Part shown: positions 45,579 through 63,305 of the stretch, one piece after another
How positions within the stretch are numbered: position 1 is the stretch's first letter
Layout of the letters: every line of letters begins with the position of its first letter
Assembly (NCBI GenBank): GCA_041690295.1
Contig: JAWLHR010000002.1
Span: 187,416 to 251,415, forward strand
Length of the DNA stretch: 64,000 nucleotides
DNA from: Bdellovibrionales bacterium
GTDB taxonomy: Bacteria > Bdellovibrionota > Bdellovibrionia > Bdellovibrionales > UBA1609
Direction: 5' to 3'
Program-made: the position numbers and the translations under genes
The notes under the pieces: model-generated
Told to the model about the DNA's origin: nothing
The model's database searches: none
What the model saw: the letters and a program-made list of their open reading frames with translations, nothing else

Positions 45579-45806
45579 TTATCGCTTTCCTATGGATTGA
45601 ACGGGGCAGATTTTGAGGGCGCGTTCGCAGGCCTCTCGCTCGCTCGCCGTCCGAGGCTGCCGGCTGAAATAAGCATAGGTCTCGATGGCATGGCTGCTAA
45701 TATTGGCCGGAGCCTCTTTCCAGCAGGCGGCGCACCGGATGCAATTGAGATCGACATAAAACTCACCCGGTACATTTTCCGGGCTAATCAAGTTCGGATC
45801 AGCCAT
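45579..45806 (-). CDS. Single-cluster ferredoxin
   Basis: FYVDLNCIRCAAC...AP...CPVQSI. Confidence 0.88.
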   Translation of the reverse strand: MADPNLISPENVPGEFYVDLNCIRCAACWKEAPANISSHAIETYAYFSRQPRTASEREACERALKICPVQSIGKR

Positions 45807-46184: not shown

Positions 46185-46202
46185 CTGAACCCTCGATCGA
46201 AT

Positions 46203-46218
46203 TGGAGTTTTGTTTGCA
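46203..46218 (+). promoter_or_regulatory. Possible sigma54 -24/-12 promoter for the Crp/Fnr gene
   Basis: TGGAGT-TTTGT-TTGCA (GG-N10-GC) 13 nt before ATG 46232. Confidence 0.3.
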
Positions 46219-46231
46219 TAAGTCTCACCAC

Positions 46232-46921
46232 ATGGAACAACGCGATCTGACCAAAGTGGCCAAATTTTCGGCCTTTTTAGGGTTTCCTGTGGATGAAATT
46301 GAAGGTTTATTCGCGGGTGCGACAATACAGAATTTGAAGCACCGCGAATGCGCCTATGTGGCTGGTGATACGGCGCAATCTTTCGCGCTGCTTTTAGAGG
46401 GCGCACTGAAGCTGGTTAAATCGCTCCCTTCAGGCGAAGACGTGATTCTCTCGTTCGTCACTCCCGGCGAATTCGTGGCTCTCTTGCTTATGTCCCGTGA
46501 AATCAGCACCTATCCGGTGTCCGTCATCTCCATGGGAGAGTCCCGGGTTATTAAAATTCCAAAGAGAACCTACGCCGAGGTGTGGACCAAGAATCCCACA
46601 ATGATTCAAAGGGTGAATAATTTGATTTTCGCGCGTGTCGCGGAGCTGCAGCAAAACAAGCTTATGGAAAAGGCCAGCTTACCGCAAAGGATCGCGAGAC
46701 AGCTTGTCTCATTGGTCGAACGATTCGGTAATGGAAATGGGACAAATCTTCCCATGCCGCTGACGCGACAGGAGATTGCGGACGCGGTTGGGGCCAGCGT
46801 CGAATCCGTGATTCGGGTGATGAGCCAATGGTCCCAGCAAGGTGTTCTCCACACCGAAGACCAAAGAATTGAAGTCAATCGCATGGATATTCTCGAGCAA
46901 ATCATGCGAGGCCAAGACTAA
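46232..46921 (+). CDS. Crp/Fnr-family regulator (Dnr/NnrR/HcpR-like, no FNR Cys cluster)
   Basis: cNMP-binding barrel (LLEGALKL, PGEF), HTH LTRQEIADAVGASVESVIR. Confidence 0.9.
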   Translation: MEQRDLTKVAKFSAFLGFPVDEIEGLFAGATIQNLKHRECAYVAGDTAQSFALLLEGALKLVKSLPSGEDVILSFVTPGEFVALLLMSREISTYPVSVISMGESRVIKIPKRTYAEVWTKNPTMIQRVNNLIFARVAELQQNKLMEKASLPQRIARQLVSLVERFGNGNGTNLPMPLTRQEIADAVGASVESVIRVMSQWSQQGVLHTEDQRIEVNRMDILEQIMRGQD

Positions 46922-46923
46922 GC

Positions 46924-48558
46924 ATGAGTGATTGTGATCCGCGTGATATCGCCATCAAGAGCTTCTTTCTTGGTCCGCAAAGTGAAAATCGTGAATGGCT
47001 GCGACGCAAGTGGATCGAGATTCTCGACAATTGGATCACCTGGCGAGCTTCCCGCTTTCCGCAAGACGGTAAGTCCATTCCGCTCAAAGATCGCGAATCA
47101 CCGGCCTTTCAACAGTCCTTGCGGCGCTTGGATGCCGCCGTGAACGAAGTGCTGAAGGACCTAGAAGATGAAACTCCCAAGTTCACGCCCCGCTATATCG
47201 GACACATGGTTTCGGAGATCAGCCTACCGGCCTTGCTCGGGCATGTCTGTGCCTTAATGCATAATCCGAACAACACGTCACGGGAAGTGAGCCGAGTCAC
47301 GTCCCGGTTGGAAGACGAAGCCATCGCCGACCTCGGCGTGATGCTGGGTTTTGGGCCGGAAGCGCGCGGGCACTTCACTTCAGGCGGCACGATGGCCAAT
47401 TTCGAAGCGCTCTGGCGCGCGATTGTTCGAATGGATCGCGAAATCAAAGACCAAACCGGACTGAGTTTTCTCGCACTGGGTCCTTGGACGTTCGGTCGCG
47501 AGTTCGAGCGAATCTCGGGCCAACCCTTCAACGGTCCGGTGGTGCTGGTGCCCAACAACAAACATTTTTCGTGGGTGAAAGCGGTGAGTCTGATGGGACT
47601 GGGCGATGAAGCGTTTTGGCCCGTGGCTTTGGACCACGAAGGCCGGCTTTGTCCGCGCGATCTGCGTGCGAAAATCGAGCAAGCTCAAAAAGAGAACAGG
47701 CCCATTCTCATGGTGGTGTCCGTGGCCGGTACCACGGAAATGGGCGAAGTCGACCCGGTGAACGAGGTTCAGGATCTGCTTGATGAGCAAGGGAAAAACA
47801 AAATCTGGCATCACGTGGATGCCGCGTACGGAGCGTATTACGCGAGCCTTCTTGATGGCGGTGAGTTGGAGTCCCGCTTGTCCAAACCCGTGGCGAAGGC
47901 GTTGCGGGCGATTCGCCGCGCGGATTCGGTGACATTGGATCCACACAAGCTCGGGTATGTCCCTTATGCTTGCGGCGCCTTTATCGCGCGCGATGAGGAA
48001 CATTATCGCACACGTCATTTTTTCGCGGATTATCTACACGATAAAAACCGCAGCCGCTGGGCTTTTACCTTGGAAGGATCCCGGTCCGGCGCCGGCGTCA
48101 CCGCCACGTGGCTGGCGAATCGGGCGTTGGGCTTGAACCCCGGCGGTTACGGACGACTTTTGGCGAAAGGACTTGAAGCGCGTGAGGCCATGGTGGCGGA
48201 GCTTCGGGAAAACGTTCCCGAGTTTCATCCGATCGAGCCGACGGACTTGAACATTCTTTGTTTCAATTTGTCTTACCCCGGCGGCAAACTGAGCGAAGCC
48301 AACGAACTTACGGAACGGGTGTTTCATCAATTTGAATCCAGTCCGAATTTTTCAGTTTCGAAAACCATTCTCAGCCGGCCGGCCTACAAATTGTTGATTG
48401 ATCGATTGGCCGCCGAGCGGTCGCTGGAAATCGATACGGATAAATGGTTCTTGTTGCGTTTGGTGTTGATGAATCCTTTTATCGTCTCAAGAGAATCCAA
48501 CACGAATTTCGTGCGGGAATTTGTCCGCGAACTGAAGAGCTTTCTTAAGTCGAGATGA
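46924..48558 (+). CDS. Group II PLP-dependent decarboxylase (tyrosine-decarboxylase-like)
   Basis: PRYIGHM, GHFTSGGTMANFEALW, HFSWVKA, HVDAAYG, DPHK (PLP Lys). Confidence 0.88.
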   Translation: MSDCDPRDIAIKSFFLGPQSENREWLRRKWIEILDNWITWRASRFPQDGKSIPLKDRESPAFQQSLRRLDAAVNEVLKDLEDETPKFTPRYIGHMVSEISLPALLGHVCALMHNPNNTSREVSRVTSRLEDEAIADLGVMLGFGPEARGHFTSGGTMANFEALWRAIVRMDREIKDQTGLSFLALGPWTFGREFERISGQPFNGPVVLVPNNKHFSWVKAVSLMGLGDEAFWPVALDHEGRLCPRDLRAKIEQAQKENRPILMVVSVAGTTEMGEVDPVNEVQDLLDEQGKNKIWHHVDAAYGAYYASLLDGGELESRLSKPVAKALRAIRRADSVTLDPHKLGYVPYACGAFIARDEEHYRTRHFFADYLHDKNRSRWAFTLEGSRSGAGVTATWLANRALGLNPGGYGRLLAKGLEAREAMVAELRENVPEFHPIEPTDLNILCFNLSYPGGKLSEANELTERVFHQFESSPNFSVSKTILSRPAYKLLIDRLAAERSLEIDTDKWFLLRLVLMNPFIVSRESNTNFVREFVRELKSFLKSR

Positions 48559-49841
48559 GGCCAAATCGCCCGCGCGAACATCAAACCTCCCGTGAGCGCC
48601 GCCAATCCTCCGATCGCCATGAACATGAATCCCCAACTTTGTCCCCAGTTCGTCAGATGATGTTCGGATCCGTAGGTTTTTCGGCCCATGCCGAAACTTC
48701 CGGCGATAAACATCCCGCTCGCGAACAACGTTTGGCCAAGACCATAGGTCCAAACCATCCGGGTCATCCAGCGACTCGTTTGATCGCCGGCCAGGATCTT
48801 AAAAGCCATGGTCATAAAACCCAGCGTCACCGCGCCGATCCCGGCGTGATAATGTCCAGGCACGCGCATATCCGGTCCCCGTATCAAGGCGCCGAAAGTG
48901 AATCCAAGGACCAGCAGGAATGCGCTGAGAACGACCGCGGCCACCTTGTGTGAGGACCAACACCGGCGCCAAAGATCAAACCGGCGGATAAGAAGAAAGA
49001 TCATGATTATAGAGACGGGCGCGATTCCCCATTGCATGAGCCTGGTGAAACCTGTCCGATACTCGTTACTCGTCACCGGATATCGCATGATAACGGCGGC
49101 CGCGAAAATCGGGAGAGAGTACGCGGCGAAAAGGGGAAAGAGTTCGGCCCGAGAAAACAAAGGCCGCCTGGCTTCGCTCGACAAAAGAAGAATCCAAATG
49201 CAAAGCAGAAACGCCACGCTGGCGTGCTGTAAAAGGTGGCCGCCGCCCCACATGCCAAGTTCAAATAGAGATTGAGTCGAAATCAGTTTAATCCGCGAAA
49301 GTTCCATATAGGATTTAGCGAGGGCGATGACCGCCAGGATAAGAAAGCCCGCGCCGATGGCCAATCCGAATCGAATTTGTTCGAATTCGGAAGCGCACGT
49401 CCTCAGCAAACGGGGCGAAAGGCAATTTAAAATGACGCCCATAAAAAAGAGAGCGAGCGCGAGCAAATAACGCCAATGAGTGAGGACGGGAATGTAATTG
49501 GAAAGAACGATTTCAACGTCGCTCCCTGGAAGTACGGTGAACATAAGAAGCACTCCTCCGACGGTGAACCAAAACCCCGCCCGGGCCAGCCAGTTCGACG
49601 GGGAGGTCCGCCGACCGGAATTCGCCGCCAGATGAAGAAGCCCGAGCGGGAGCGCGATGAACCAAACCAGTGTCGCGAGATTCACGTGAAGGACAAGGCA
49701 CCAGCGCACCAGATCCAAGTTCGAAATACTGTCCTTGATCAAAGGCATTTTGGCGACCGTGACGATCAAAGCGAGCGCGCCGCTGATTAAAAGCGAAACG
49801 CTGGCCAAGCGCACCCAATTGCGCGCGAACGGATCCGTCAT
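48384..49841 (-). CDS. Degenerate heme-copper oxidase subunit I-like membrane protein (heme ligands kept, CuB/FeB His-His missing)
   Basis: About 12 TM; LVLHVN, SNYIP, WGGGHLLQ, PGHYH, GMGRK parallel subunit I motifs; last ~57 codons overlap the decarboxylase antisense. Confidence 0.75.
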   Translation of the reverse strand: MTDPFARNWVRLASVSLLISGALALIVTVAKMPLIKDSISNLDLVRWCLVLHVNLATLVWFIALPLGLLHLAANSGRRTSPSNWLARAGFWFTVGGVLLMFTVLPGSDVEIVLSNYIPVLTHWRYLLALALFFMGVILNCLSPRLLRTCASEFEQIRFGLAIGAGFLILAVIALAKSYMELSRIKLISTQSLFELGMWGGGHLLQHASVAFLLCIWILLLSSEARRPLFSRAELFPLFAAYSLPIFAAAVIMRYPVTSNEYRTGFTRLMQWGIAPVSIIMIFLLIRRFDLWRRCWSSHKVAAVVLSAFLLVLGFTFGALIRGPDMRVPGHYHAGIGAVTLGFMTMAFKILAGDQTSRWMTRMVWTYGLGQTLFASGMFIAGSFGMGRKTYGSEHHLTNWGQSWGFMFMAIGGLAALTGGLMFARAIWPHLDLRKLFSSRTNSRTKFVLDSLETIKGFINTKRNKNHLSVSISSDRSAANRSINNL

Positions 49842-51823
49842 CCCCCATCTCCTTTCACTTGGAGTGTTTTTTGATCCGGGGAAAGGTGAACCAAAACGAT
49901 CTTGCCTTCTTCAATACGAATTTCATCGTCCAGCTTCAGCGAGATCGCCGACGTGTTTTCCGCATCCGCGGGCGAGAATTCCAAATGAACCCGGTAATCG
50001 CCAGGTTCAAAAGCCAAGTCGCGATTGAAGTAAATCGGGCGATCGGCGTGAAGGCCACCGGGGCTCACGGTTTGCTCCAAATGGAGCTTCTCGTTGATGA
50101 ACAAGCGCAGGCGGTAACTGAGCATTCTTTGTTCGCATAATTCCGGTGTGCGCATGTGCAACGGCAGTTGATTCAGTTCCGCTTCCGTGCGGGGCCGGCA
50201 GGTCCGTACGGACTGGCCGGAAAGACGAAAGCTGAGCCGGAGAATTCCGTTTTCCGCCTTCTCACCGAAGGGGATCCGGGTCGCGGCCGCGAGGCCCAGC
50301 GCCAAAGCGATGGCGGCAGTGAGGGAAATCAGGCGCGTGCTGGTTTTCCGCGCTTGCTCGGAGAATCGCATGAACCGGATTTGTCCGAGCAACTTGTGCT
50401 CTTCGCCTTCGCCGACGGTCATCAGGTGGATCGCCCGGCGGTTCACCTCGTTCACGATCGTGGGTTCGCGCTGGCCGCCGAGCCGTTCGGTGAGTAAGCG
50501 GTGGCCATCCTTGTTAATGCATCGGCGCTCCGGACAGGCGGCGATCACGACGGACTGGAAGTTTCTGGCGAAATGTTCAAACACGGTCGCGTGCACCCTG
50601 CCGGCGCAAGGAACCGGGTAAAATGCGTAACCAAGATTTCTATTGGCGAAGTCGGCGATCGTCGCCGCCACTCCGGTCTGCGTTTCACAGGCCATGATCA
50701 GCGCCGTTTGTTTCAGATCCTTAGAGCGGGCCCGCAGGGAGGAGATGAACGACCGGGCCGCGGCGAATTGATCTCCGCCCCGGTAACCGGGCAAACCCAT
50801 CGTGAACGGGGCGCAAGAGGCGGAACACAACCCGCAACTCACGCAAAGGTCCGGGTTCACTTTCGCGACAAACTCCGAACCGCCGCCTTTGGTGCGTGGA
50901 ACCATTGCGATCGCTTCATAGGGACAATCTTGAACGCATTGAGTGCAACCGACGCACTTAAGTTCGTCGTTGGACGCTTTCTCCGGACGACTGGCGGGTT
51001 TTAACCAGAAAGGAATCGAAACCATGAATGAAACGGCCGCCACCCAGGCGAGAAAAGTGAAAAGCGGCGCCTTCTGGCCCGCCGGCAACCAGAAACTGAA
51101 AAACCAATCGGTGGGATAGTCGAATGGTATCCGGAGAAGATCGGCCTTTTCACCAAGAGGCGCGGGCCAAAAGGCCGCGACCACAAAGAGAGCACCGGCC
51201 ATTCCGAATATGAGTCGTCTTTCCGGAAACCAACTCGCGTTTTTCATTTTCGCCGTGTGCAGCCAGATGCCGAAGATCATCGCCAGGGGAATCACGATGT
51301 GCAGAAAGAGATTCAAAAAGAAAAACGAAGCGGGAGGAGGTACCGAGCCATCGAACGACCGGCTGATCGGATCGGAAAAAATTCCGATCGCGTCCATGAT
51401 TCGCGCTCCAGTGACGGCGATCGTTTGTCCGTGCTGGTCCCAAACCAGCACGAGTCCGGTCCAGCCGGATATGAACATAAGAACAACGAGAAGCACTCCG
51501 GTGATCCAGGCCAGCGCTCTCGGTCCCCAGTGCTTGCGTTGAATAAACATCCGCAGCACATGAAAGGCGACCGCGATCACCATCGCGTCCGAAGCGTAAC
51601 GATGAAGCCCTCGAATCCAGCGGCCCAGCCAAGGATCTTGTTGAAGGGCGGAAACCGATTCATACGGCGCGCCCAAGCGATAAAAAAAGCAAAGGTAAAG
51701 TCCGGTGATCGTGACGATCGCCAAGAGGGCCACGGCGATCGTGCCGCTACTGTAAAGTGGATTGAAGCGCGATGTGAACAGCCGGTTAAAAAGATTATCG
51801 AGCCGCCGTATGGTTTTTTCCAT
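49838..51823 (-). CDS. Cytochrome b / 2[4Fe-4S] / MvhD(FlpD)-like fusion with C-terminal TM and periplasmic domain
   Basis: Two His pairs 14 apart (HRYAS..FHVL; LHIV..WLH), TDWF Qo-like motif, CVGCTQCVQDCP and CVSCGLCSASC, ACE..PCAGRVH..ACPERRC. Confidence 0.85.
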   Translation of the reverse strand: MEKTIRRLDNLFNRLFTSRFNPLYSSGTIAVALLAIVTITGLYLCFFYRLGAPYESVSALQQDPWLGRWIRGLHRYASDAMVIAVAFHVLRMFIQRKHWGPRALAWITGVLLVVLMFISGWTGLVLVWDQHGQTIAVTGARIMDAIGIFSDPISRSFDGSVPPPASFFFLNLFLHIVIPLAMIFGIWLHTAKMKNASWFPERRLIFGMAGALFVVAAFWPAPLGEKADLLRIPFDYPTDWFFSFWLPAGQKAPLFTFLAWVAAVSFMVSIPFWLKPASRPEKASNDELKCVGCTQCVQDCPYEAIAMVPRTKGGGSEFVAKVNPDLCVSCGLCSASCAPFTMGLPGYRGGDQFAAARSFISSLRARSKDLKQTALIMACETQTGVAATIADFANRNLGYAFYPVPCAGRVHATVFEHFARNFQSVVIAACPERRCINKDGHRLLTERLGGQREPTIVNEVNRRAIHLMTVGEGEEHKLLGQIRFMRFSEQARKTSTRLISLTAAIALALGLAAATRIPFGEKAENGILRLSFRLSGQSVRTCRPRTEAELNQLPLHMRTPELCEQRMLSYRLRLFINEKLHLEQTVSPGGLHADRPIYFNRDLAFEPGDYRVHLEFSPADAENTSAISLKLDDEIRIEEGKIVLVHLSPDQKTLQVKGDGG

Positions 51824-52709
51824 GGGTGATCCGTTCGACGGCTTGGCTCAGCCATTTAGCCGGAGCATTATTAAAGGTGTACGCGATGCGGCCGTCAGCG
51901 GAGATCAGGTAAACGAGAGCGGGATGGATCACATCGCCGGTTTTTTCATCGCGTTCGCGGGGAACATTGAAGTCGGAAAGAACCGAGTTCACGGTTTCGA
52001 CCTTGCCTGACAATACGTGAGCCCCCATGGGAAGATTCCATTTCTCGGCTAAGAAGGGAAGAGAGCTAGGAGTGTCCCGCCAGGGATCAAGCGTGACGAT
52101 CAATAGTCGCACCGGCACGTTCTTGACCGATTTCATCGCCTCCATCGTCTCGCGCACGAGAACCGGGCAGACGGTTTGGCAATGGGCAAAGGCGAAGGTC
52201 AGAATGACGTTCTCACCTTTCAATGTCTGCAACGAAACCGTTTTTCCCGATTGGTCGACCAACTCGAAATCCGGAGCGGGTTTGTTCTGGCGGGGATAGT
52301 TCTCAGGAAAGTCCTCGTTCGTGTGCGTTTGAAAATCAACCTTTCCGGTTTCCACCGCGGCTTTGATTTTTTGTCCCACCCAAACCGCCTCCAGCAAAAC
52401 CACGGCGAACGCCAGGTAAAGAAAATGCCGCCCGCCCGAGGAGGAGAAGGCTCCATGCAGTGTGCGCATCAACTCCCCGGGCCAGGCGACAAGGAAGAAT
52501 AATAGGAACGATAAGGGACCAAGAGTCAAAATCATCCAACCGGCGGCCGACGGCAGGCCGTTTTCCATTGATCCGAAACAGACATTGCGGGCGACGCTTA
52601 GCCATTCGGGTGAGGAGTCGGGCACCGGTAGAAACGCGAGAGCCCACCATAAAAGAGTCGCCAATAGCCAGAGTGAAAGAATGATCTGCGGCGCGCGTTT
52701 CATCTTCAT
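51795..52709 (-). CDS. SCO-family copper chaperone with extended N-terminal membrane domain
   Basis: CQTVCP (CxxxC), DPWRDTP, VIHPA; 3 TM with VCFG before; ATGA overlap with the subunit I stop. Confidence 0.9.
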   Translation of the reverse strand: MKMKRAPQIILSLWLLATLLWWALAFLPVPDSSPEWLSVARNVCFGSMENGLPSAAGWMILTLGPLSFLLFFLVAWPGELMRTLHGAFSSSGGRHFLYLAFAVVLLEAVWVGQKIKAAVETGKVDFQTHTNEDFPENYPRQNKPAPDFELVDQSGKTVSLQTLKGENVILTFAFAHCQTVCPVLVRETMEAMKSVKNVPVRLLIVTLDPWRDTPSSLPFLAEKWNLPMGAHVLSGKVETVNSVLSDFNVPRERDEKTGDVIHPALVYLISADGRIAYTFNNAPAKWLSQAVERITHGKNHTAAR

Positions 52710-54436
52710 CCCACCTTCCACAAGAAGGAAAGGATCTTCCAATTCACGAAGTAGTAAAGAACGAAGCAGGCGAAGAAAATGAACACCAGCACCATCGTGC
52801 CTTGGGCGCCTTTGAGGTGCACTTTGGCCACGTGGGCGCCCTGGTGGATCTGAGCCGGCGGTTTGAGGATGCCTTGCGGGAGACCGCTTAAGCGCTTGGC
52901 GATCGCTTCTTCATTGACCGGTTTGCCGAAAAAGACCGTGGTCACGGCGATCAACACGAAGGAGAGAGCCGCGAAAGCGGCAAGAACGCCACCGATACCC
53001 ATCGTGGTTTGGACAATCCACACGGCCGGATGGAACTCGACCGTGAAAGGCGCATTGGAAAATGAAATGTCCCAATGCCTTCGCGGAACGCCGAAGATCC
53101 CCTGGTAGATCATGGACATGCACATCAAACTGATGCCGAAACCGAAGAGATAGGGTTGAATTTGAGCCAGTTTCCAAAAGGTCACGCGTTTTTGGAAAAT
53201 CAGGGGTAAGACGTAGTAGGTGACGGCCATGAAGGCCAGCGCCGTGCCGCCCACGACGGTGGCGTGAAAATGTCCGGGTAATCGCATGGTATTGTGGGCG
53301 ATGATATTGATTTGTTCGGTTCCGATCGTGACACCGGTGATTCCACCCAGAAATCCGAAGATCACCACAGACAGGGCCAGGCCCGCGAAACCCGGATCAC
53401 CCCAGGGCGCCTTTCTCAACCATTCGAAACGGCCAGACGTGAATCCGCGAAGTCGCTGCCCCATTTCGATGCCCGCGGGAACAGTGAAACCGTGGACCAT
53501 GCTGGCGAGCACCGCCAAGTACATCGCGTAGCTCGTGTTCCACACCTTCCACGCCGGACCGAACCCCGGGTCCACCAACAGGTGGTGCGCGGAGGCCATT
53601 GAGATGAACAGAATGTAAAGGACAAACGCGGCTCGACTGACTTTTTCATTCAGCACAACCCCGCCGACCGTCACCGCGCCGAGGAAATACCAAATCGAAA
53701 CCATGGCGGCGACGTTGATTTGTTGCGAGGAATGCCCAAGCGCCCAGAACAATAAACGGTAAAGTTGAGCGTCAAGTTGAATGAGGTCCATCGACCATAA
53801 CCATGTCGGAATGTAAGTGGCGGCGCCATGAACCAGCGTGATCACGGCAATGATCGCGGCGGTGAGGGCGCCGAACGTCACAAGCGGCATGCTGCCCTTG
53901 TAAGACTTTTCTTTTTTGGCCACCACAAGGGACGCGAAGAAAAGCGCGGTGGCGAGAAGCGCGCCGACGGCGAAGAAAATGATTCCCAGATAATAGTATG
54001 GATCCGCCCGTAACGGAGGATAGGACGTGAAAAGAACGTCGGCCTTCCCCTGTAAGACCATGATGTCGGTTAAAATGGTCCCCACAACCATCAACAAGAA
54101 CGCCAGCCAGCCGAGCTTGGGCGCCGGTTGACGGGCGTTCAAAAGGACCGGTCCCGCGAAATAAAGCACCGCCATTTCAAAAAAGATGATGAAGAAGATC
54201 AGCATGTTCAGCGCGTGAAGTGTCAGAATACGGTAAAACCAATGCGCGGGAAGAAGGTGAATCGACTGCCAGCGGGTCAGCACGAGGCCAACCGCGGCGA
54301 GGGCTCCCACCAGCAAACAGACCACCGCAGCGACAGCGTTGGCCTTGATCAGGTTTTCCGAATCACGGTTAACTTTCAAACCTGTCACGGCACAGGTTCT
54401 GAATCGGCTTGCCAAAGATTGTACGGCCCCACTCAT
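52706..54436 (-). CDS. Heme-copper oxidoreductase subunit I, B-family-derived NO reductase (eNOR-type)
   Basis: All six His ligands (TLHA, GHSSQQ, AHH, GHFH), TSYPPL, GVPRR; helix-VI HPxVY replaced by HSSQQ. Confidence 0.85.
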   Translation of the reverse strand: MSGAVQSLASRFRTCAVTGLKVNRDSENLIKANAVAAVVCLLVGALAAVGLVLTRWQSIHLLPAHWFYRILTLHALNMLIFFIIFFEMAVLYFAGPVLLNARQPAPKLGWLAFLLMVVGTILTDIMVLQGKADVLFTSYPPLRADPYYYLGIIFFAVGALLATALFFASLVVAKKEKSYKGSMPLVTFGALTAAIIAVITLVHGAATYIPTWLWSMDLIQLDAQLYRLLFWALGHSSQQINVAAMVSIWYFLGAVTVGGVVLNEKVSRAAFVLYILFISMASAHHLLVDPGFGPAWKVWNTSYAMYLAVLASMVHGFTVPAGIEMGQRLRGFTSGRFEWLRKAPWGDPGFAGLALSVVIFGFLGGITGVTIGTEQINIIAHNTMRLPGHFHATVVGGTALAFMAVTYYVLPLIFQKRVTFWKLAQIQPYLFGFGISLMCMSMIYQGIFGVPRRHWDISFSNAPFTVEFHPAVWIVQTTMGIGGVLAAFAALSFVLIAVTTVFFGKPVNEEAIAKRLSGLPQGILKPPAQIHQGAHVAKVHLKGAQGTMVLVFIFFACFVLYYFVNWKILSFLWKVG

Positions 54437-54449
54437 GTTCCTTCTCCTT

Positions 54450-55001
54450 CTATTCCGTCACTAAAACTTTGCCGACCATAATGTGATGGCCGATACCGCA
54501 GAACTCATTGCAGATGATGCGAAAATCCCCCGCCGAATTCGGCGTGATTTTCAAAGCGTAGTCGTAACCGGGAATCACTTGAAAATTGAGATTGACCGGG
54601 AAAAGGCTGAAGCCGTGATTGATGTCGATCGCGGACAAATGCAAGGTGTACTGCGCGCCCTTTTTTAATTTGAGCACGGGATACCATTGCCACATTCGCG
54701 CCAGAAGATAAACGTCCGCTCCGGGCGGCGGTTCAACGACGGGAATTCCGGATTCCTCTCCGATTTTATAGTCGGCAACGAAACGTTCGGTGCGCGCCAT
54801 GAAATCGGCGGGCTCAACTTTCGATCGAATTCCCGAGGGATTCTGTCCTCCCCGAATGTGCCAGAGCGGCATCATGGCGAAAAGAATCAAACACCATATG
54901 AAGGCGATGGTGATCCATAGTTTTTCCTGTTTCGGCACATCCTTCCACCAAATCCCCGTCGGGGGAACGATCGAGGAATGCATACTTTCGTGATCGCTCA
55001 T
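54450..55001 (-). CDS. Heme-copper oxidoreductase subunit II with CuA site
   Basis: Single TM, WQWYP, DINHGF, CNEFCGIGHHIM. Confidence 0.93.
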   Translation of the reverse strand: MSDHESMHSSIVPPTGIWWKDVPKQEKLWITIAFIWCLILFAMMPLWHIRGGQNPSGIRSKVEPADFMARTERFVADYKIGEESGIPVVEPPPGADVYLLARMWQWYPVLKLKKGAQYTLHLSAIDINHGFSLFPVNLNFQVIPGYDYALKITPNSAGDFRIICNEFCGIGHHIMVGKVLVTE

Positions 55002-55028: not shown

Positions 55029-55196
55029 TTAAGGGAGAGGCGCTTTCGGCAGACTGAGGATCTCGAAAATCCCCCACACCGTATAAAAAATCAGCATGGT
55101 GAGAAATCCGACGATCAACCAAAGAAACGGCCGGTCGAAAAGTTTTTGTCCGGCTGGAATATTTTCGGCGTGCGGGTGTCGAGTTTGATCATTCAT
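55029..55196 (-). CDS. Small single-TM subunit (subunit IIa-like)
   Basis: 55 aa, QKLFDRPFLWL-TM-YTVWGIFEI; AGAGGG SD; first gene of the operon. Confidence 0.7.
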   Translation of the reverse strand: MNDQTRHPHAENIPAGQKLFDRPFLWLIVGFLTMLIFYTVWGIFEILSLPKAPLP

Positions 55197-55325: not shown

Positions 55326-55341
55326 TATGATTTATATCATA
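55326..55341. promoter_or_regulatory. Crp/Fnr-like palindromic operator between the eNOR operon and nrdJ
   Basis: TATGAT-TTAT-ATCATA; geometry of TTGAT-N4-ATCAA. Confidence 0.6.
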
Positions 55342-55429
55342 TCGCGCACGATTTAAAACTCGACCATGAGCTTCTTGACGGTTGAGTGAGATTCCTGGTC
55401 TCGTTTTCTCATCATCAAGGAGACTCTTC

Positions 55430-58400
55430 ATGCCCACTTTAGAAATCCAAAAAAATTCAGATCGACGAATCCGCGCCAGACGCGGATTGAAAGTCGAACG
55501 CAAGTTCGTGCCCGTGGATGTGTCGCCCTACGATCAAGTCGAGTGGGTGAAGCGTGAGAGTAAGGTGAAAGACGCCGATGGCTCCGATGTTTTCTCAATG
55601 AACGATCTCGAGGCGCCAAAGAGTTGGAGTCAACTGGCCGTGGACATCGCCGCGAGCAAATATCTTCGACGCTCGGGCGTGCCCGGTACGGGTCATGAGA
55701 CTTCCATTCGTCAGCTGGTTTATCGAGTGGCTCACACGATTCGCAAGGCCGGCGTGGACCTTGGATATTTTAAAAGCTCGGAAGACGCGCGGAACTTTGA
55801 AGATGAATTGACTCACATTTTGCTTCAGCAAAAAGGCGCGTTCAACAGTCCGGTTTGGTTCAATTGTGGCTTGCACCACGAATATGGAATCGGCGGCTCA
55901 GGGGGAAGTTTCTTTTGGAACTTCCGCACCGGTCAGATCGAGCGAACCTCGGAAGCCTATAAGAATCCTCAATGTTCGGCCTGTTTCATCCAAAGCGTGG
56001 ATGATGACTTGATGAGTATTTATAATCTCATCAAAAATGAAGCGCGCTTATTCAAGTACGGTTCAGGTTCGGGAACGAATTTCTCAAGATTGCGCAGTCG
56101 GTTCGAGCGTCTTTCGGGCGGCGGATCCAGTTCCGGTGTGATGAGCTTCCTGGAAGTTTTGGATCGCAGCGCGGGCGCCACCAAATCGGGCGGGACCACC
56201 CGGCGGGCCGCCAAGATGGTTTGCCTTGATATGGATCATCCCGAAATCGAGGATTTCATCACGTGGAAAATGCGCGAGGAGAAAAAGGTCAAAGCCCTGG
56301 TGGACGGCGGTTTCAGCCCGGATTTCAATGGTGAGGCCTATCGAACCGTGTCCGGGCAAAACTCCAATAACTCCGTTCGCGTCAGCGATGAATTCATGCG
56401 AGCGGTTGAGAACGATGACGTCTGGCGCACCACCGCGCGAACCACCGGCGAAGTTGTGCAAACGTACAGGGCCCGTGAACTTTGGCGCAAGATCGCCGAG
56501 GCGGCCTGGCACTGCGCGGATCCGGGGCTTCAGTTTCATAGCACCATCAATGCATGGCATACCTGTCCGGAGTCAGGGCCGATTGAAGCCAGCAATCCCT
56601 GCTCGGAGTACATGTTTTTGAATGATTCGGCTTGTAACCTTTCGTCGATCAATCTGACCAAATTTTTGGATGACGAAGGCCGATTCGATGTTGAGAGTTT
56701 CCGTCACTGTGTACGGATACTGATTCTCGCTCAGGACATTCTGGTGGATTTTTCGAGTTATCCCACCGCCGCGATCGCGGCCAATAGCCACGATTTTCGG
56801 CCGCTTGGACTGGGCTACGCGAACCTTGGCACTTTGTTGATGATCAAAGGATTACCTTATGACAGTGAGGCCGGTCGCGAGTGGGCGGGAGCGATCACCG
56901 CGCTCATCAGCGGCGAAGCCTATCGCATGAGCGCGTTGCTTGCGGCGGAAAAAGGTGCGTTCGCCGGATTTGCGAAGAACGCGCAACCGATGTTGCGGGT
57001 GATCGAGCGTCACTTGGAAAAGGCCAATGCGCTTTCCGATCGCTATGTGGACAAAAATTTACGGGCGGAGGCCGGGCGGGCGTGGCTCGAAGCTTTGGCC
57101 TTGGGGCGCCGGCATGGGTTTCGAAACTCTCAAGTGACGGTTCTCGCCCCGACCGGCACGATCGGGTTGCTCATGGACTGCGACACCACCGGCGTCGAAC
57201 CCGATTTCGCATTGGTGAAGTTTAAAAAACTCAGTGGCGGCGGTTATCTGAAAATCGTGAACCAGTCCGTACCTCTTGCGTTGCGTTCACTCGGATATTC
57301 CGATCATGAGATTGATGCGATCGTCACTTATGCCACCGGCACGCAAACGCTGAAGAATGCGCCTCACATCAACGAGCCATCGCTTCTCGATCGCGGTCTG
57401 ACCAAAGCGGATATCCAAGCCATCGAAGCGGCTTTGCCCTCGGCCACGGACCTTAACGCCGCGGTTTCGGCGTGGGTGCTCGGTCAGGAAACTCTGTCAC
57501 GCTTGGGAGTTTCGGGGGAAAAGTCAATCCTTCGAGCCCTGGGATTCACTGCGGAACAAATTGAGGAGGCGTCGGATGTGATTTGCGGTCGCATGACTGT
57601 TGAGGGCGCGCCTTATCTTAAGTCCGAACATTTGCCGGTTTTCGATTGCGCCAGCCGGTGTGGGAGAAAGGGAACACGACACATTTCGCCCATGGGACAT
57701 TTGCGAATGATGGCGGCGGCGCAACCGTTTCTGAGCGGCGCGATTTCAAAGACGGTGAATCTCCCCAATGAGATCGCCGTCGAGGAAATCGAGGATCTGT
57801 ATTTTCAGGCGTGGAAGCTCGGTTTGAAAGCGGTCGCCGTGTACCGCGATGGATGTAAACTGAGCCAGCCTTTGAACAGCGCCAAGAAAGAAAAAGCCGA
57901 AGCGTCAGCGGAGTTGACGCCCGGAAGACGACGAAAGTTACCGTACAAGAGAAACGGCCGAACGATCGAGGCTCGGGTCGGTGGTCATCAGGTCTATGTC
58001 CGTACGGGTGAGTTCGCGGACGGTACGCTGGGTGAAGTTTTCATCGATATGCATAAAGAAGGCGCAACGTTCCGAAGCTTGCTCAATTGCTTCGCGATTT
58101 CGGTTTCGCTTGGACTGCAGTATGGCGTTCCCTTGGAGCAATTTGTTGAAAAGTTCGTATTCACGAGGTTTGAGCCGGCGGGTTTTGTTGATCATCCCCA
58201 TCTCAAACAAGCCACGAGTATTTTGGATTATATATTCCGGCTGTTGGCCTTTGAGTACTTGGGGAAAACGGAATTGGTCCATGTGAAACCGGATTCCGCG
58301 GGCCACCCCACGGAACCGAACGCCACGGCTCTCGCGACCGTCATGAGTGACGCGCCACTATGCAATGAATGCGGCCACGTCACGGTTCGAAATGGAACTT

Positions 58401-58444
58401 GTTACCGGTGCCTAAATTGTGGAAACTCGATGGGATGCTCTTAG
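55430..58444 (+). CDS. nrdJ: Class II (adenosylcobalamin-dependent) ribonucleotide reductase with C-terminal TSCPD/Zn-ribbon region
   Basis: [53 protein letters not shown], terminal CNEC...CLNC; AAGGAG SD. Confidence 0.95.
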
Positions 58445-58452
58445 GAGGGAAA

Positions 58453-59676
58453 ATGAATCGAGCGATTTGGATTTTTTTGGTGTTGGCGGGCGGTCCGGTC
58501 TGGGCTGTCACGGATCGGATTGAAATCGGTGGGTCAGCGCGTGTGCGAGCGGAATTTCGCGATAACGCGGACTTCAATCAAGCCACCAAAGATTACTCCG
58601 ATAATATTGGCTCGCGTCTTCGGATCGACGCCAAATTCAAAGCCAATGAAAAGGCCAGTTTGTTCTTTCAACCCCAGTTCACCAAAATCTGGGGGGAGCC
58701 GGAGTTTGTTCCCACCGGCGCCGGCGCCAACACGGCTATGAACACAAGTGGCGCGACTCATGACACCGGCCTTGATATCCATCAGGGTTTTCTCTCCTAT
58801 TCGACCTCGGAAGAGTTATCGATTCTGCTGGGTCGAAAGGAATTAAATTACGGAGACGAGTTGCTTGTCGGCGGTGTGGGCTGGAGTCATGTTGGGCGAT
58901 CATTTGACCTTGTTCTGGCGGAGTACAAGCATCAGTGGGGACGGATTGATGGATTTTACTCAATGGTGGTGGACCGTAACGTCAGCTCGGCGGCCGCAGG
59001 AGATCGCGATTTCTCCGGTTTGTATTTCGCCAATCGGTTTTCTGATTATTTGAGTCATGCGGATTTTTATGTTTTTCACCTCAACGATAGCGGTGTGAAT
59101 CCCAAAACAAGTACGACCGCCTATGGACTGCGGCTTAAGTCGCCGGTGGAGCGCTTTGATTATCGGGTGGAAGCCACACTTGAGAACGTTAAAGGTGTGG
59201 GCAGTCAGGATGAACATCAATTCGATGTGGAGTTGGGTTACACGTTTCTCGAGGCCGCGAAGCTTCGCTTGGCGGTTGAATATTTTTACGCCACGGCGAA
59301 TTTCGATCAGCTCTTTCCGACGGGACATAAGTGGTTGGGATACGCGGATTTGTTTTCGCGACGGAACATCAAGGGCTACCATGCGCGCCTTTCGGGTCAA
59401 CCCACCGATAGTTTGACGCTGGCCCTGGACTATCATGTCTTTGAACGGCAAGAGACGAGCCAACCGGCATATAAATTCAATGGCACGGCTTACGGAACGA
59501 CGGGCGAATCCTCGGCGATCGCCACCGAGATTGATTTTGTGGTGGCTTATAAAGTGGATGATAATCTGACTCTTGAAGGCGGCGCCGCCCGGGTGCAACC
59601 GGAAGACTATTTAAAAGATAACGGTGGGCCCGATCAGGCCTACTTTTATTACTTGCAAACGACGCTAATGTTTTGA
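58453..59676 (+). CDS. Alginate-export (AlgE)-family outer-membrane beta-barrel
   Basis: Signal peptide, RVRAE, GRKELNYGDELLVG..W..VGRSFD, FPTGHKWLGYAD, terminal Phe. Confidence 0.82.
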   Translation: MNRAIWIFLVLAGGPVWAVTDRIEIGGSARVRAEFRDNADFNQATKDYSDNIGSRLRIDAKFKANEKASLFFQPQFTKIWGEPEFVPTGAGANTAMNTSGATHDTGLDIHQGFLSYSTSEELSILLGRKELNYGDELLVGGVGWSHVGRSFDLVLAEYKHQWGRIDGFYSMVVDRNVSSAAAGDRDFSGLYFANRFSDYLSHADFYVFHLNDSGVNPKTSTTAYGLRLKSPVERFDYRVEATLENVKGVGSQDEHQFDVELGYTFLEAAKLRLAVEYFYATANFDQLFPTGHKWLGYADLFSRRNIKGYHARLSGQPTDSLTLALDYHVFERQETSQPAYKFNGTAYGTTGESSAIATEIDFVVAYKVDDNLTLEGGAARVQPEDYLKDNGGPDQAYFYYLQTTLMF

Positions 59677-59683
59677 TGATGAG

Positions 59684-60835
59684 TTAGTGAACTCGTCCAT
59701 CCACACGTGGTTGCCAAAGGAAGGGGGCGATTCGGGTGCCGATGATCAGGAATCCGAGCGCCCATCCGATGGCCGACAGGAGAATCCACTTCATGTAATA
59801 CTGCGGCCAGACTTGAGTGAGAATCAGTCTGGCGATCGCGCCGAGGAAAATACTTAAAAAGCCGAGGCGATCGCTTGTGGTGAAGCGAATGGTTCGCCCG
59901 GTGTGGCCGTGGGAGATGCGAAGGAGCATGCCCGGGATGATGAGACCCATACAAATAAAAGTGAATACGTGCAGGGACAAAGTGCCCACGCCGGCATAAA
60001 CTCCACCGACCTTCACGGCCTCGAAGAGGAAGTGAAAAATCAATCCCAGATGACCGATGTACATGATCGCGATTCCAAAATTGCTAAGACCCGCGAGCGG
60101 CGACCAGGTCAAATACCGTGCGAACATCAGTGTTCCCGTGGCCCCAAGCAGGAGGGCCGAGGGAAGGCTTGGCAAAAAGCTTGAGAACGCCGATGCCAAG
60201 ACCAAAAATTTAATTGCCGTATCCAACCGGGCGTTTCGCGTGAGGTGCACACTCAGGGCGTTCTTCATGAATTGGGTCGTGGTTCGCTCCAGCATCACGG
60301 CAAAGGCGAGGCGATAAAGGCCAACGCTGAGAGCGACGCCATCGGCGTAGGTTTCTTGAAAAAGGATCATGTTTTTGGCGATCAGAAAAATCGGAAGTCC
60401 GATCATGAAAAAATAATTGTCTTTAAAACTGTCCTGCTTGCGGTAGCGGATCAGGGAGTAAAGGACGTAGTCGGCGCAGGCGAGGATGAAGACGTTGAGC
60501 AAAATCAGCCGGAGCGGTTCGGGAAATCGAGCGGCCTGAAGCACAACAAGCCGTTCTAAAATCCACGCGGCAGTGATCAAGGCCAGCGGAGGTCCGTGGA
60601 TGCCGCGGATTTTGACCCAATTTTTACTGGCGGTGAGTAAAAACCCGCCCAGAACGGCCCAACCGAATCCATAAAGCATTTCGTGCGCGTGCCATTGGGT
60701 GAGCGGGAGTGAGGCCGCCGGCAATTGCAAGCGGCCGGAATAGATCAGACCCCAAGCAATGGGAAATCCAACACCGGAAATCAAAGCGAGTAAAAACAAA
60801 GGACGGAAACCGGCCAGCCATAGAGCAGAGGTCAT
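59684..60835 (-). CDS. nnrS: NnrS-family heme-copper membrane protein
   Basis: GFRPLF, WHAHEMLYGF, GFLLTA..NW, LHVFT, RISHGHTGR. Confidence 0.93.
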   Translation of the reverse strand: MTSALWLAGFRPLFLLALISGVGFPIAWGLIYSGRLQLPAASLPLTQWHAHEMLYGFGWAVLGGFLLTASKNWVKIRGIHGPPLALITAAWILERLVVLQAARFPEPLRLILLNVFILACADYVLYSLIRYRKQDSFKDNYFFMIGLPIFLIAKNMILFQETYADGVALSVGLYRLAFAVMLERTTTQFMKNALSVHLTRNARLDTAIKFLVLASAFSSFLPSLPSALLLGATGTLMFARYLTWSPLAGLSNFGIAIMYIGHLGLIFHFLFEAVKVGGVYAGVGTLSLHVFTFICMGLIIPGMLLRISHGHTGRTIRFTTSDRLGFLSIFLGAIARLILTQVWPQYYMKWILLSAIGWALGFLIIGTRIAPFLWQPRVDGRVH

Positions 60836-60843
60836 TGACCAAT

Positions 60844-61275
60844 CTATTTGACCAAGGCCAGATATTTGGCAAGGCGATCTTTGTTCATGGCGAAATTCTT
60901 CGCCATTTTCTCGGCTTCTTTTTTGGCCGCGTCAAGATTTGTAGGTTTTCCGACTTGAATCACGCCGGCCATGCCCATGGGCAGATGGGGATCGCATTTA
61001 AAAATGTAAACACCTTCTTTGTCCAATTTGACGGTTAATTTCTCATCCATTTTCCCCGTCCAACCTTTCGCACCGGATGGGACCACGGCGGATGTGGAAT
61101 TATGAGTTTTATCGGTCGGCACAAAGGTGACAGTGTCTCCCGGTTGCACTTGTATAAATCCGGGCTCAAAGGTCATCATTCCATCGGCACCGTTGTTTTT
61201 CATTTGAATTTCAACATTCTTCCCATGAGCGGTCAGGCTAAGGAAAATGAATGCAAATAAGGTGATTTGTTTCAT
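60844..61275 (-). CDS. Pseudoazurin (type 1 blue copper protein)
   Basis: Signal peptide, MTFEPGFIQVQPGDTVTF, HNS, KCDPHLPMGM; ATG 61275. Confidence 0.92.
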   Translation of the reverse strand: MKQITLFAFIFLSLTAHGKNVEIQMKNNGADGMMTFEPGFIQVQPGDTVTFVPTDKTHNSTSAVVPSGAKGWTGKMDEKLTVKLDKEGVYIFKCDPHLPMGMAGVIQVGKPTNLDAAKKEAEKMAKNFAMNKDRLAKYLALVK

Positions 61276-61372
61276 AGGGGTATTTCCTTTGTGAAGGGTG
61301 AATTCAGCCCGCAAGCGCATCTCTCGCGGCCTCAGCGGAAATCTATCTGCCATAGCAAAATCGGCCGTGGTT

Positions 61373-61386
61373 ATGACTTACGTCAT
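61373..61386. promoter_or_regulatory. Crp/Fnr-like palindromic operator upstream of pseudoazurin-nnrS
   Basis: ATGAC-TTAC-GTCAT. Confidence 0.55.
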
Positions 61387-61443
61387 GCGAAGCGATCCAG
61401 ATCGAGTGGTCGAACATAAGTTATTCGGTGAATTGTGTGGGGT

Positions 61444-61465
61444 GAACCGTGCCCGGGCACGGTTC
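61444..61465. repeat. Perfect 22-bp GC-rich palindrome (REP-like)
   Basis: GAACCGTGCCCGGGCACGGTTC is its own reverse complement. Confidence 0.8.
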
Positions 61466-61479
61466 CCGAGCAGTATCTT

Positions 61480-62413
61480 GACGTGGAACACGCTTTCATT
61501 TTCCTACAATGACAATGGGGAGATGATTTCGCGAACTAATAGTTCAACCAGCATTACGACTAATTACACTTACGATGTATTTGGCCATATGCTATCCGCC
61601 TCGATATCAGGTGGAATGGATGTGGATTATGTTGTCGATCTGCTGGGGCGACGAGTGATGCGATCGTCCTCGAATACTGAAACTGGGAGATATCTTTATA
61701 ACGGTCAGTATCAGGTTATCGGTGAGATGAATCCGGACAATACCGTAAAGCGTATGTTTGTGTACGGTTCTCGAACTCACGTGCCAGACTATTACACTGA
61801 TGGCACGAATAGTTATCAATTTTTAACGGATCACCGTGGATCAGTACGACTAATCGTCAAGGTTTCTGATGGAAGTGTTCAGCTTCGTCGAGACTACGAT
61901 GAATTTGGGACAATCACTTTTAGCTCAGGATCTTTGGATCAGCCCTTCGGCTTCGCAGGAGGGGTCTATGATAGCGAAACCAACCTTGTGCAATTCGGCG
62001 AACGGGATTATGATGCTGAGACCGGGCGGTGGACGAGTAAGGACCCGATTCTGTTCGCGGGTGGGGATACGAATCTGTATGGGTATGTGTTGTCAGATCC
62101 GATTAATTTTATTGATCCAAGCGGTTTGTACCAGGTTTGCACTAGGCCAGTTCAAGGTTTGCCCATGTTTGATCACTCCTACATCAGGTTTCCAGAAGGT
62201 GATACCATTTCATGGGGACCAGAAAGCGGTTTCTGGGGACCTGGTAGAAATAATCCAAATGATTCAGGTGGAACGTGTGGACCAAACCAGGATTCTACAC
62301 CAGAACAAGACCAGCGCATGAGGGATTGGGCGCGGCAGAACGAAAGAAGGTTCTATGATCCAATTTTCAACAATTGTCATAGCTTCGTTCGAGACACAAT
62401 TAGAAATAGGTAG
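61480..62413 (+). pseudogene. 5'-truncated (orphan) Rhs core plus C-terminal toxin domain; left boundary approximate
   Basis: YD-type repeats, YQFLTDHRGSVR, RDYDAETGRWTSKDPI, DPINFIDPSGL; no N-terminal Rhs body or clear SD. Confidence 0.85.
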
Positions 62414-62420
62414 GTTTTAG

Positions 62421-62732
62421 ATGTCGCTACATTTGATATTAACTTTTCTTTACTGGATCGCAGGGGCTGGGCTTTTGATATGGGCAAATATTGGTTATAT
62501 GCGGTTTGGCCCTGAAGGCGGAATTGGTCCGATTACTTTGCTGAACTTCTTGGCCATGCCCATCGCGTTGCCTTAAAACTATTTACTTACAGTGATCGGC
62601 CCATATGTTTGGCCTGAGAAGGGTTCGCTGATCGCAAGCAATTTCGTTGCATTTGTTGTCCTAGTTGCAGGGTACCTCCAGTGGTTTTATTTGTTTCCTT
62701 GGATCTTTAACAAGATCCGAGGAATGCTCTAG
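62421..62732 (+). pseudogene. Putative membrane immunity protein interrupted by in-frame TAA (62574-62576)
   Basis: Manual translation MSLHLILTF...PIALP*NYLL...GYLQWFYLFPW...; hydrophobic frame continues 51 codons past the stop. Confidence 0.65.
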
Positions 62733-62764
62733 TCTTTTCATCATGGAATCCGTTTTTATGCCAA

Positions 62765-62783
62765 CAGTGCCAAACCAGTGCCA
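62765..62783. repeat. Direct repeat CAGTGCCA x2 (11-bp period), integrase arm-site-like
   Basis: 62765-62772 and 62776-62783, plus partial ATGCCA at 62758. Confidence 0.5.
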
Positions 62784-62912
62784 TAAAAATTCAGAAAATT
62801 CGGAAAATCTGATCAAAAACGGCCATCGGGTCCTTACACTCACACAAAAATCGCTGCAACTTGCAGTCGATGTTTACGATGAAGGACTCAATAAAAATTG
62901 AGGGAGGTATTA

Positions 62913-63305
62913 ATGCATTACGACGATCAACAGTTTTTTAAAGATGTCTATGATGAACTGGCAAACAAAGTGAGGGTCGTTATTGAGTGGGATGGTTACC
63001 AGTCAGGCAATGACGAAGAGAAGAAAAAATATTTCGAGGATCTTGTAGAAACTGAAGGCGTCACGGCAAGCAAGTTCCTTGGCGCTGATCCGTGGACAGG
63101 CAATCAGCCCTTATTGGAAGAGGCAAAAAAACAAATAAAGGATTTGCTTACGGAGCGGACAAAATATGTCGTTGCGAAAATGCCCAAACAGATTTTTGAT
63201 CACTGCAAAAACTCTAAGTACTTTGACCGTCTTTCAAGGCAAATTGAAACGAACAACAAGGAAAAGCTCACCGTGTTGGTTGAAGACCTGTGGTTTCCGT
63301 ATTGA
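62913..63305 (+). CDS. Hypothetical protein
   Basis: GGAGG SD, 130 aa; no family recognised. Confidence 0.6.
   Translation: MHYDDQQFFKDVYDELANKVRVVIEWDGYQSGNDEEKKKYFEDLVETEGVTASKFLGADPWTGNQPLLEEAKKQIKDLLTERTKYVVAKMPKQIFDHCKNSKYFDRLSRQIETNNKEKLTVLVEDLWFPY

Follow-up and report, generated by a model that had tools for sequence, protein, structure and literature searches.

A cytochrome b-iron-sulfur fusion protein is a near-constant genomic companion of eNOR

We analysed a 64,000-nt stretch of DNA (the window) from a Bdellovibrionales bacterium (GTDB UBA1609; assembly GCA_041690295.1, contig JAWLHR010000002.1, positions 187,416-251,415, forward strand), in which a gene at window positions 49838..51823 on the minus strand encodes a 661-aa protein that joins a cytochrome b to a 2[4Fe-4S] ferredoxin domain, an MvhD-like domain, a further transmembrane (TM) helix and a periplasmic beta-sandwich, as read from the open reading frame (ORF), Pfam, NCBIfam and an AlphaFold model. 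The gene follows those of eNOR, an enzyme of nitric oxide (NO) reduction, and its family is a real, conserved eNOR partner, the window protein being, by its domain architecture, a new member of a clade already described. That the fusion is a dedicated partner of eNOR of some kind is almost certain. New here is the near one-to-one link with the enzyme; the fusion as such (Kao and Hunte 2014) and a pairing with eNOR in Ferrigenium (Becker et al. 2026) were known. eNOR makes the greenhouse gas N2O, and a partner found in 68 of 69 sampled eNOR genomes offers a direct, experimentally accessible way into the question of how eNOR is assembled or supplied with electrons, as well as a likely job for a cytochrome b clade that has been on record as of unknown function since 2014.

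The link was surveyed at genome level in 804 genomes from four phyla, comprising 251 genomes of the host's own phylum and samples centred on Gemmatimonadota (201), Acidobacteriota (201) and Myxococcales (151); related genomes in these counts are not independent and E-value thresholds varied slightly among the samples. Family members were present in 68 of the 69 genomes with eNOR (64 of 65 without the four seed genomes), and a distant relative occurred in 2 of the 735 genomes without it. eNOR was found in 5 genomes of the host's phylum and the family in the same 5, and the corresponding numbers were 42 and 41 for the Gemmatimonadota-centred sample, 4 and 4 for the Acidobacteriota-centred sample, and 18 and the same 18 for the Myxococcales-centred sample. 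Twelve further genomes of the Gemmatimonadota-centred sample gave single-domain matches only (E ~1e-36 to 1e-38) and were not counted. Pseudomonadota were covered by one plasmid and by metagenome loci, and Bacteroidota, Chloroflexota and Archaea lay outside the genome-level sampling.

Amongst 8000 scored sequences, 1328 homologs of the 661-aa protein were detected at E<=0.001, and the nearest named ones were from Bdellovibrionota. Of the best 80 of at least 263 confirmed family loci, 67 contained eNOR subunit I, while most of the other 13 stop at a contig edge; six of these 13 were checked at genome level, where five had eNOR elsewhere and one (G809) gave no eNOR-grade match. Among the best 80 of 317 metagenomic eNOR loci (alphaproteobacterial query first), the family was found in 47, and in 43 of the 43 where at least 2.3 kb of downstream sequence was available. 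The distances of eNOR I and of the cytochrome b were correlated over 94 loci (Spearman 0.91, with kin that are not independent), and 111 of 160 loci have a gene for the copper chaperone Sco. The cytochrome b gene and the gene for the periplasmic piece were both kept even in genome G806, where eNOR and Sco are at a different locus. A search for longer fusions (1158-3305 aa), such as one with eNOR I, gave none at E<=1e-15 among 7423 candidates, which is weak evidence.

The exception among the eNOR genomes, G444, has a divergent eNOR (HGTQQ, ~45% identity) with no Sco or cytochrome b gene within 18 kb. Plasmid eNORs of Thermus and Thermomicrobium (HGAQQ) were likewise in loci without Sco and without the cytochrome b, as read from the plasmids only. 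Both genes were thus missing in all three loci of the divergent type (HG[A/T]QQ) that were read, and the link therefore holds for the main eNOR type and not for all eNORs. In the same divergent loci (L167, which is that of G444, L084 and L085) we noted that the Thermus copy adjoins nirS, with Lys at a haem-ligand position.

The neighbouring oxidase in the window is an eNOR by its residues, which were compared by offset with the criteria of Dataset S1 of PMC11214002. Subunit I (52706..54436, minus strand, as are all genes of the operon; Pfam and residue criteria) carries GHSSQQIN, in which Gln replaces the active-site Tyr, followed by Tyr at +11 and SxxH, providing the K-channel Tyr, Ser and His; subunit II (54450..55001; Pfam, NCBIfam) has the Glu and a CuA motif. 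We predict from these residues that the window enzyme is a NO reductase. Counts of 547 GTDB genomes and 2,709 metagenome entries have been given for eNOR (PMC11214002, Table 1), whose NO reductase activity was shown for Rhodothermus marinus only and which was assayed with an artificial donor (PMC11214002). Between subunit I and the cytochrome b lies a Sco copper chaperone whose N-terminus carries an additional membrane domain (51795..52709, likely start ATG at 52709; Pfam). The operon order is a small TM ORF, subunit II, subunit I, Sco, the cytochrome b and a COX1-like gene, and the genes are tightly packed: the start of Sco overlaps the stop of eNOR I, Sco overlaps the start of the cytochrome b by 29 bp, and ATGA overlaps are found at two junctions besides this 29-bp one.

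Every motif that an earlier sequence-only reading had named in the fusion (cytochrome b, 2[4Fe-4S], MvhD-like and periplasmic two-Cys domains) was recovered in the 661-aa ORF, and the Pfam architecture search that it had suggested matched Cytochrome_B (residues 16-194, E 2.7e-17), Fer4 (284-338, with Fer4_7 at 289-337) and FlpD (378-483, E 4.2e-6, above the cut-off). The cytochrome b part (residues 16-275, 50999..51778; Pfam, model, alignment and structural match) has six predicted TM helices and the haem ligands His74 (51602-51604), His88 (51560-51562), His175 (51299-51301) and His189 (51257-51259), with a spacing of 14 in both pairs; this spacing is bc1-like because the fourth helix is one residue shorter than in cytochrome b6. 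The AlphaFold model (pLDDT 93.3, pTM 0.89) matched cytochrome b of the bc complexes with Z 22.0 and a root-mean-square deviation (r.m.s.d.) of 3.0 over 258 aligned residues spanning residues 18-523, so that ligands and fold together describe a four-helix bundle with two bis-His sites where haem is predicted to bind. The ferredoxin domain has two CxxCxxCxxxC motifs (Cys290-300 and Cys327-337, 50810..50974; Pfam, alignment), and the MvhD/FlpD-like domain (50363..50704; Pfam, alignment, profile) has Cys379, Cys406, Cys430 and Cys435 for a predicted [2Fe-2S] cluster. A seventh TM helix (residues 497-514, 50282..50335; model) leads to the last domain. From bc-complex homology and the helix count, the Fe-S domains are expected inside the cell and the last domain outside.

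The likeness to bc1 and b6f cytochromes thus covers the fold, the four haem His, their 14-residue spacing and an acidic residue in the Qo motif. The fusion differs from them by its Fe-S arm and periplasmic domain, by the loss of the Pro of PEWY, by the lack of the CxGG for haem cn, and by a locus without a Rieske or c1 partner, although c1 was not searched for by family. The window protein has no His five residues past His189, which we take to be the Qi position in bc1 numbering. The two predicted cytoplasmic Fe-S domains also resemble the HdrA2/QmoB type (HdrABC-MvhAGD), where a ferredoxin domain precedes MvhD in the order of the HdrA2 C-terminus with the MvhD Cys in register: the NCBIfam HdrA2 profile for an HdrA-MvhD fusion aligned its positions 571-762 of 777 in a single block with residues 282-483, far under the whole-protein cut-off. 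Unlike HdrA, the window protein has no FAD-binding bifurcating core and is tied to a membrane cytochrome, and no other FlpD gene was found in the genome.

Conservation was measured by aligning the window protein with the 150 cluster representatives listed for 3731 matches (151 sequences in all), the denominators being the rows that have a residue at the column. The haem His were invariant (143/143, 144/144, 147/147 and 146/146). The eight ferredoxin Cys were kept in 142-144 of 143-145 rows and three MvhD Cys at ~99% (Cys379 141/142, Cys406 141/142, Cys430 139/141), so that the Fe-S Cys are conserved across the family; the fourth MvhD residue, Cys435, was kept in 116 of 141 rows and replaced in 25. 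The proposed arrangement of these four Cys as in MvhD/FlpD was borne out, since a profile of the domain matched solved MvhD chains only (6 matches, best E 7e-15) with the four Cys in register. The PEWY-like TDWF motif also stands where it had been placed (residues 238-241, 51101..51112; alignment), at the Qo-motif position; its Asp239 was kept in 138 of 147 rows and the Pro of PEWY is not kept in the family.

Natural variants separate what is constant in the family from what is exchangeable. What stays the same is the haem wire together with the outer cap, while the inner arm varies, one version ending in an NAD(P)H-binding flavin domain. In most relatives the cytoplasmic arm consists of ferredoxin and MvhD domains, and the host genome has the MvhD form only. 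Loci L151 and L163 have an arm of Fer2 [2Fe-2S], FAD and NAD(P)H domains and retain the periplasmic piece; this form accounted for 2 full-length ORFs in 160 loci, many of which are incomplete. At L151:13699-19346, an FAD/NAD-fused and an MvhD-fused cytochrome b surround one periplasmic gene and are followed by a COX1-like gene. The layout of this eNOR operon is similar to that in Ferrigenium and suggests a possible heterodimer. The arm can also be absent: in the in-frame forms of G053 (P0220; L166:8759-10138) and P0254 the cytochrome b is joined straight to the last helix and periplasmic domain, and that of G053 is still in an eNOR-Sco operon.

The periplasmic beta-sandwich (49850..50260; alignment, model) has a helical loop closed by Cys542 and Cys563 (in CRPR...ELCEQR), probably as a disulfide, with His556-Met557 at its tip. 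The piece is a separate ORF in 93 relatives versus a fused domain in 14. Both Cys were present in 90 relatives, neither in 25 and one only in 3, and the two lie on adjacent strands of the predicted model; because they are kept or lost together and are adjacent, a structural disulfide is suggested. A redox role for this pair is not supported, and the idea of a redox-active dithiol was rejected because of the paired loss. His556 (108/125) and Met557 (106/123) are common but not invariant. Folded alone (pLDDT 94), the domain had generic beta-sandwiches as its best matches (Z 7.8, r.m.s.d. 3.6, 98 aligned), Foldseek gave nothing at E<=0.001, no Rieske match appeared in the structure searches, and 30 matches in an Atlas search had no Pfam family in common. 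A complex prediction of the whole protein with Sco was uninformative, its score of 0.00 lying below the mark of 0.32, and neither supports nor counters an interaction.

The claim that the cytochrome has no Rieske partner held at genome scale. In the host genome (completeness 99.89%) the fusion gene is the sole Cytochrome_B match, and the two PF00355 (Rieske) matches lie on other contigs and belong to flavoprotein fusions. A Rieske gene of the bc type was not found in the genome, distant or near, although a very divergent one could escape, as one in L170 scored only 20.4 bits. The genome encodes an alternative complex III (ACIII), an A-type oxidase and a cbb3 oxidase, and the presence of ACIII rules out the fusion as the replacement of a missing complex III. 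Two nirK genes are present as well, while nosZ gave no match above the cut-off and no further COX1 match was of the NOR type. By eye, each nirK gene (G000:C12:13510-17456 and C15:36621-39434) has a C-terminal haem c motif and is followed by a Sco-like gene, one of the two clusters also has an NnrS-like gene, and a separate CcoG-like gene stands by the cbb3 operon.

The sequence-only reading had proposed a Rieske-less wire serving a NO reductase or its maturation. This fits the evidence, with eNOR as the partner and a near one-to-one link, while the direction of flow and the choice between supply and maturation are what we infer. Our preferred explanation, held tentatively at somewhat less than an even chance for the full mechanism, is an outward electron wire that supplies reductant for the assembly or reactivation of eNOR metal centres together with Sco. 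Electrons from a cytoplasmic NAD(P)H- or ferredoxin-linked donor would enter the MvhD [2Fe-2S] cluster and cross two [4Fe-4S] clusters and two b haems to the periplasmic face, where the beta-sandwich may act as a cap or docking piece with no cofactor of its own; the acceptor there would be either Cu(II) or oxidised thiols of Sco/CuA, or else an eNOR site that has become over-oxidised. Electrons leaving NAD(P)H or ferredoxin in this direction run downhill at the expense of membrane potential, as they do in systems that export reductant. With ACIII and pseudoazurin already there to feed CuA, the cell has no need of a generic quinol oxidase, and without a Rieske cluster or a fixed outer ligand a Qo bifurcation has no evident high-potential acceptor. 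We favour assembly or reactivation because other routes to CuA exist and because Sco and the cytochrome b come and go as a pair at the loci that were read. Precedents are the haem-based reductases that act on Cu(II)/Fe(III) across the membrane and CcoG, an Fe-S cupric reductase (PMC7558416).

Several observations weigh against an assembly role. The cytochrome b gene of G806 is unlinked to Sco. In G444 the CuA motif is intact at a locus that holds neither Sco nor the cytochrome b, so neither is essential for building CuA. The kept Qo Asp suggests quinone chemistry, and without an invariant periplasmic metal ligand no Cu site can be named. The Acidobacteriota genomes G589 and G609, in which no eNOR was found, have a distant relative in a respiratory setting, namely a cbb3, Rieske and cytochrome b operon from which Sco and the periplasmic piece are both absent (L170:1861-10102 and L169:1456-10128, respectively); the operon encodes CcoN, a CcoO-cytochrome c, a further cytochrome c, a Rieske protein, a standard long cytochrome b, a cytochrome b-ferredoxin fusion and a separate MvhD, possibly forming a complex III-IV supercomplex with a cytoplasmic Fe-S outlet. 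Finally, no experiments on any family member were found in the literature searched, which leaves out most subscription papers.

Neither of the soluble carriers once proposed for the wire is a fixed partner. The ferredoxin gene at 45.6 kb (45579-45806), named as a possible donor, was confirmed in the window, and its presence and that of pseudoazurin, the suggested acceptor, were scored by tblastn (E<=1e-4) in 160 related loci, where they were found in 0 and 1, respectively.

The leading alternative, which we regard as rather unlikely, is that the same outward wire sustains turnover of eNOR: electrons would leave cytoplasmic NAD(P)H or ferredoxin and reach either quinone, at the site facing the periplasm, or one of pseudoazurin, cytochrome c and CuA, on a route reserved for the fast removal of NO. 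Such a wire would bypass coupling sites and spend membrane potential in a genome that has complex III alternatives, and the loss of the cytoplasmic arm in some relatives and the rarity of pseudoazurin (1 of 160 loci) also speak against it, although it would produce the same co-occurrence with eNOR and the overlapping genes imply comparable expression. The Asp kept at the Qo position is in its favour, as is the report of F. straubiae cytochrome b proteins in a denitrifying proteome (10.64898/2026.01.22.701106), but purified Rhodothermus eNOR gave two bands, for subunits I and II only (bioRxiv 10.1101/2021.10.15.464467).

Electrons might also run the other way. Becker et al. (bioRxiv 10.64898/2026.01.22.701106) described two cytochrome b-[Fe-S] genes in the eNOR operon of Ferrigenium straubiae as 'rather unusual' and as possible Ferrigenium markers, and suggested that they act as a quinol:NAD+ oxidoreductase that forms a supercomplex with eNOR. 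Quinol would be oxidised at the periplasm-side site; NO reduction would draw off one of its electrons and so drive the second, by way of the haems and Fe-S clusters, as far as NAD+ or ferredoxin. In favour of this proposal are the operons (L151 and Ferrigenium) that pair an FAD/NAD(P)H-fused paralogue with an MvhD form, the kept Qo Asp, and the G589/G609 relative adjoining a Rieske protein and a standard cytochrome b. We nevertheless judge it unlikely, for the Qo side has neither a Rieske cluster nor any other one-electron carrier of high potential, its beta-sandwich lacking an invariant ligand, the FAD/NAD form is rare even allowing for many incomplete loci, and armless variants exist. Most of the carriers found are from groups known as heterotrophs, and electrons would have to climb steeply from haem b to NAD+. 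Quite unlikely, too, is the related reading that eNOR is half of a respiratory module in which the cytochrome b, with a periplasmic adaptor replacing the Rieske protein, is wired to cytoplasmic low-potential carriers. If true, NO reduction would be coupled to NAD(H)/ferredoxin chemistry, in some operons via a pair of MvhD-armed and FAD/NAD-armed cytochromes b, and nearly every main-type eNOR would have a new kind of complex III derivative.

Another accessory role, as a reductant or sink for haem A synthesis or insertion, in iron delivery or as a NosR-like redox sensor of eNOR expression, is improbable: eNOR requires a modified haem a (PMC11214002), some operons have haem o synthase, further CtaB-/CtaA-like ORF clusters were seen by eye and a haem-binding COX1-like companion is present in 8 of 160 loci, but the haem genes vary among operons while the cytochrome b is constant, the A-type oxidase of the host genome has its own CtaA and no cytochrome b partner of the fusion type in the listed region, and no signalling or DNA-binding domain was found in the Pfam matches.

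The fusion of cytochrome b with 4Fe-4S and MvhD (FlpD) domains was already described as the PDWF-FeS clade (Kao and Hunte 2014, PMC4122944), and large cytochrome b proteins whose function was not established were classed as subfamily H (Dibrova et al. 2017, PMC5600118). The passages on these groups mention no eNOR or Sco link and no periplasmic subunit, whereas the window protein has a fused periplasmic domain and TDWF. Compared by eye, a segment of amb2225 printed in the supplement of Dibrova et al. and a Defluviimonas homolog are identical at 29 of 44 positions. The operon in Ferrigenium has the same cytochrome b and Fe-S content together with eNOR I/II, Sco and a 'scaffold' gene (10.64898/2026.01.22.701106), but in our samples from four other phyla nearly every genome with eNOR also has the family, which argues that its genes cannot serve as Ferrigenium markers. 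No general link between the family and eNOR was stated in the literature that we found.

CcoG, NosR and NosGH offer comparisons for reductant export, as analogy only. No CcoG/FixG or NosR family was present among the Pfam matches or the 25 of 43 NCBIfam matches listed, and no direct comparison was made. CcoG, too, sits in the membrane with two [4Fe-4S] clusters on the cytoplasmic side and a periplasmic beta-sandwich at its C-terminus, and its gene adjoins that of a haem-copper enzyme, but it has no cytochrome b domain (PMC7558416).

The remaining features of the operon vary more among loci. The COX1-like protein (48384..49841), whose gene overlaps the stop of the cytochrome b by 4 bp, keeps three haem His and the helix-VI His/Gln and has lost the His-His metal pair. 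It is an optional companion, found in G053 and G138 in addition to the 8 of 160 loci, and is possibly a haem carrier or scaffold. ORF clustering in 80 loci fused the core genes with shadow ORFs and was used for minor companions only. Ahead of subunit II, a 55-aa single-TM ORF (55029..55196) is probably a small subunit, and similar small ORFs were found in loci L083-L085. The N-terminal membrane domain of Sco (~52300-52709) has no Pfam match and shows a conserved CFG...GLP motif in loci of the non-proteobacterial type. Upstream of the operon, the palindrome TATGAT-N4-ATCATA (55326..55341, no strand assigned) presumably resembles an FNR/DNR box. The flanks (46202-46921 and 58369-61353) encode a Crp/Fnr-family regulator, an alginate-export-family porin, NnrS and pseudoazurin and are likely to form a NO-response island, which also encloses genes for a pyridoxal-dependent decarboxylase (46924-48558) and for what is, as judged by eye, probably a ribonucleotide reductase (55382-58444). 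At the contig end, an RHS-repeat fragment and a phage-integrase gene lie at 61298-63867 of the window.

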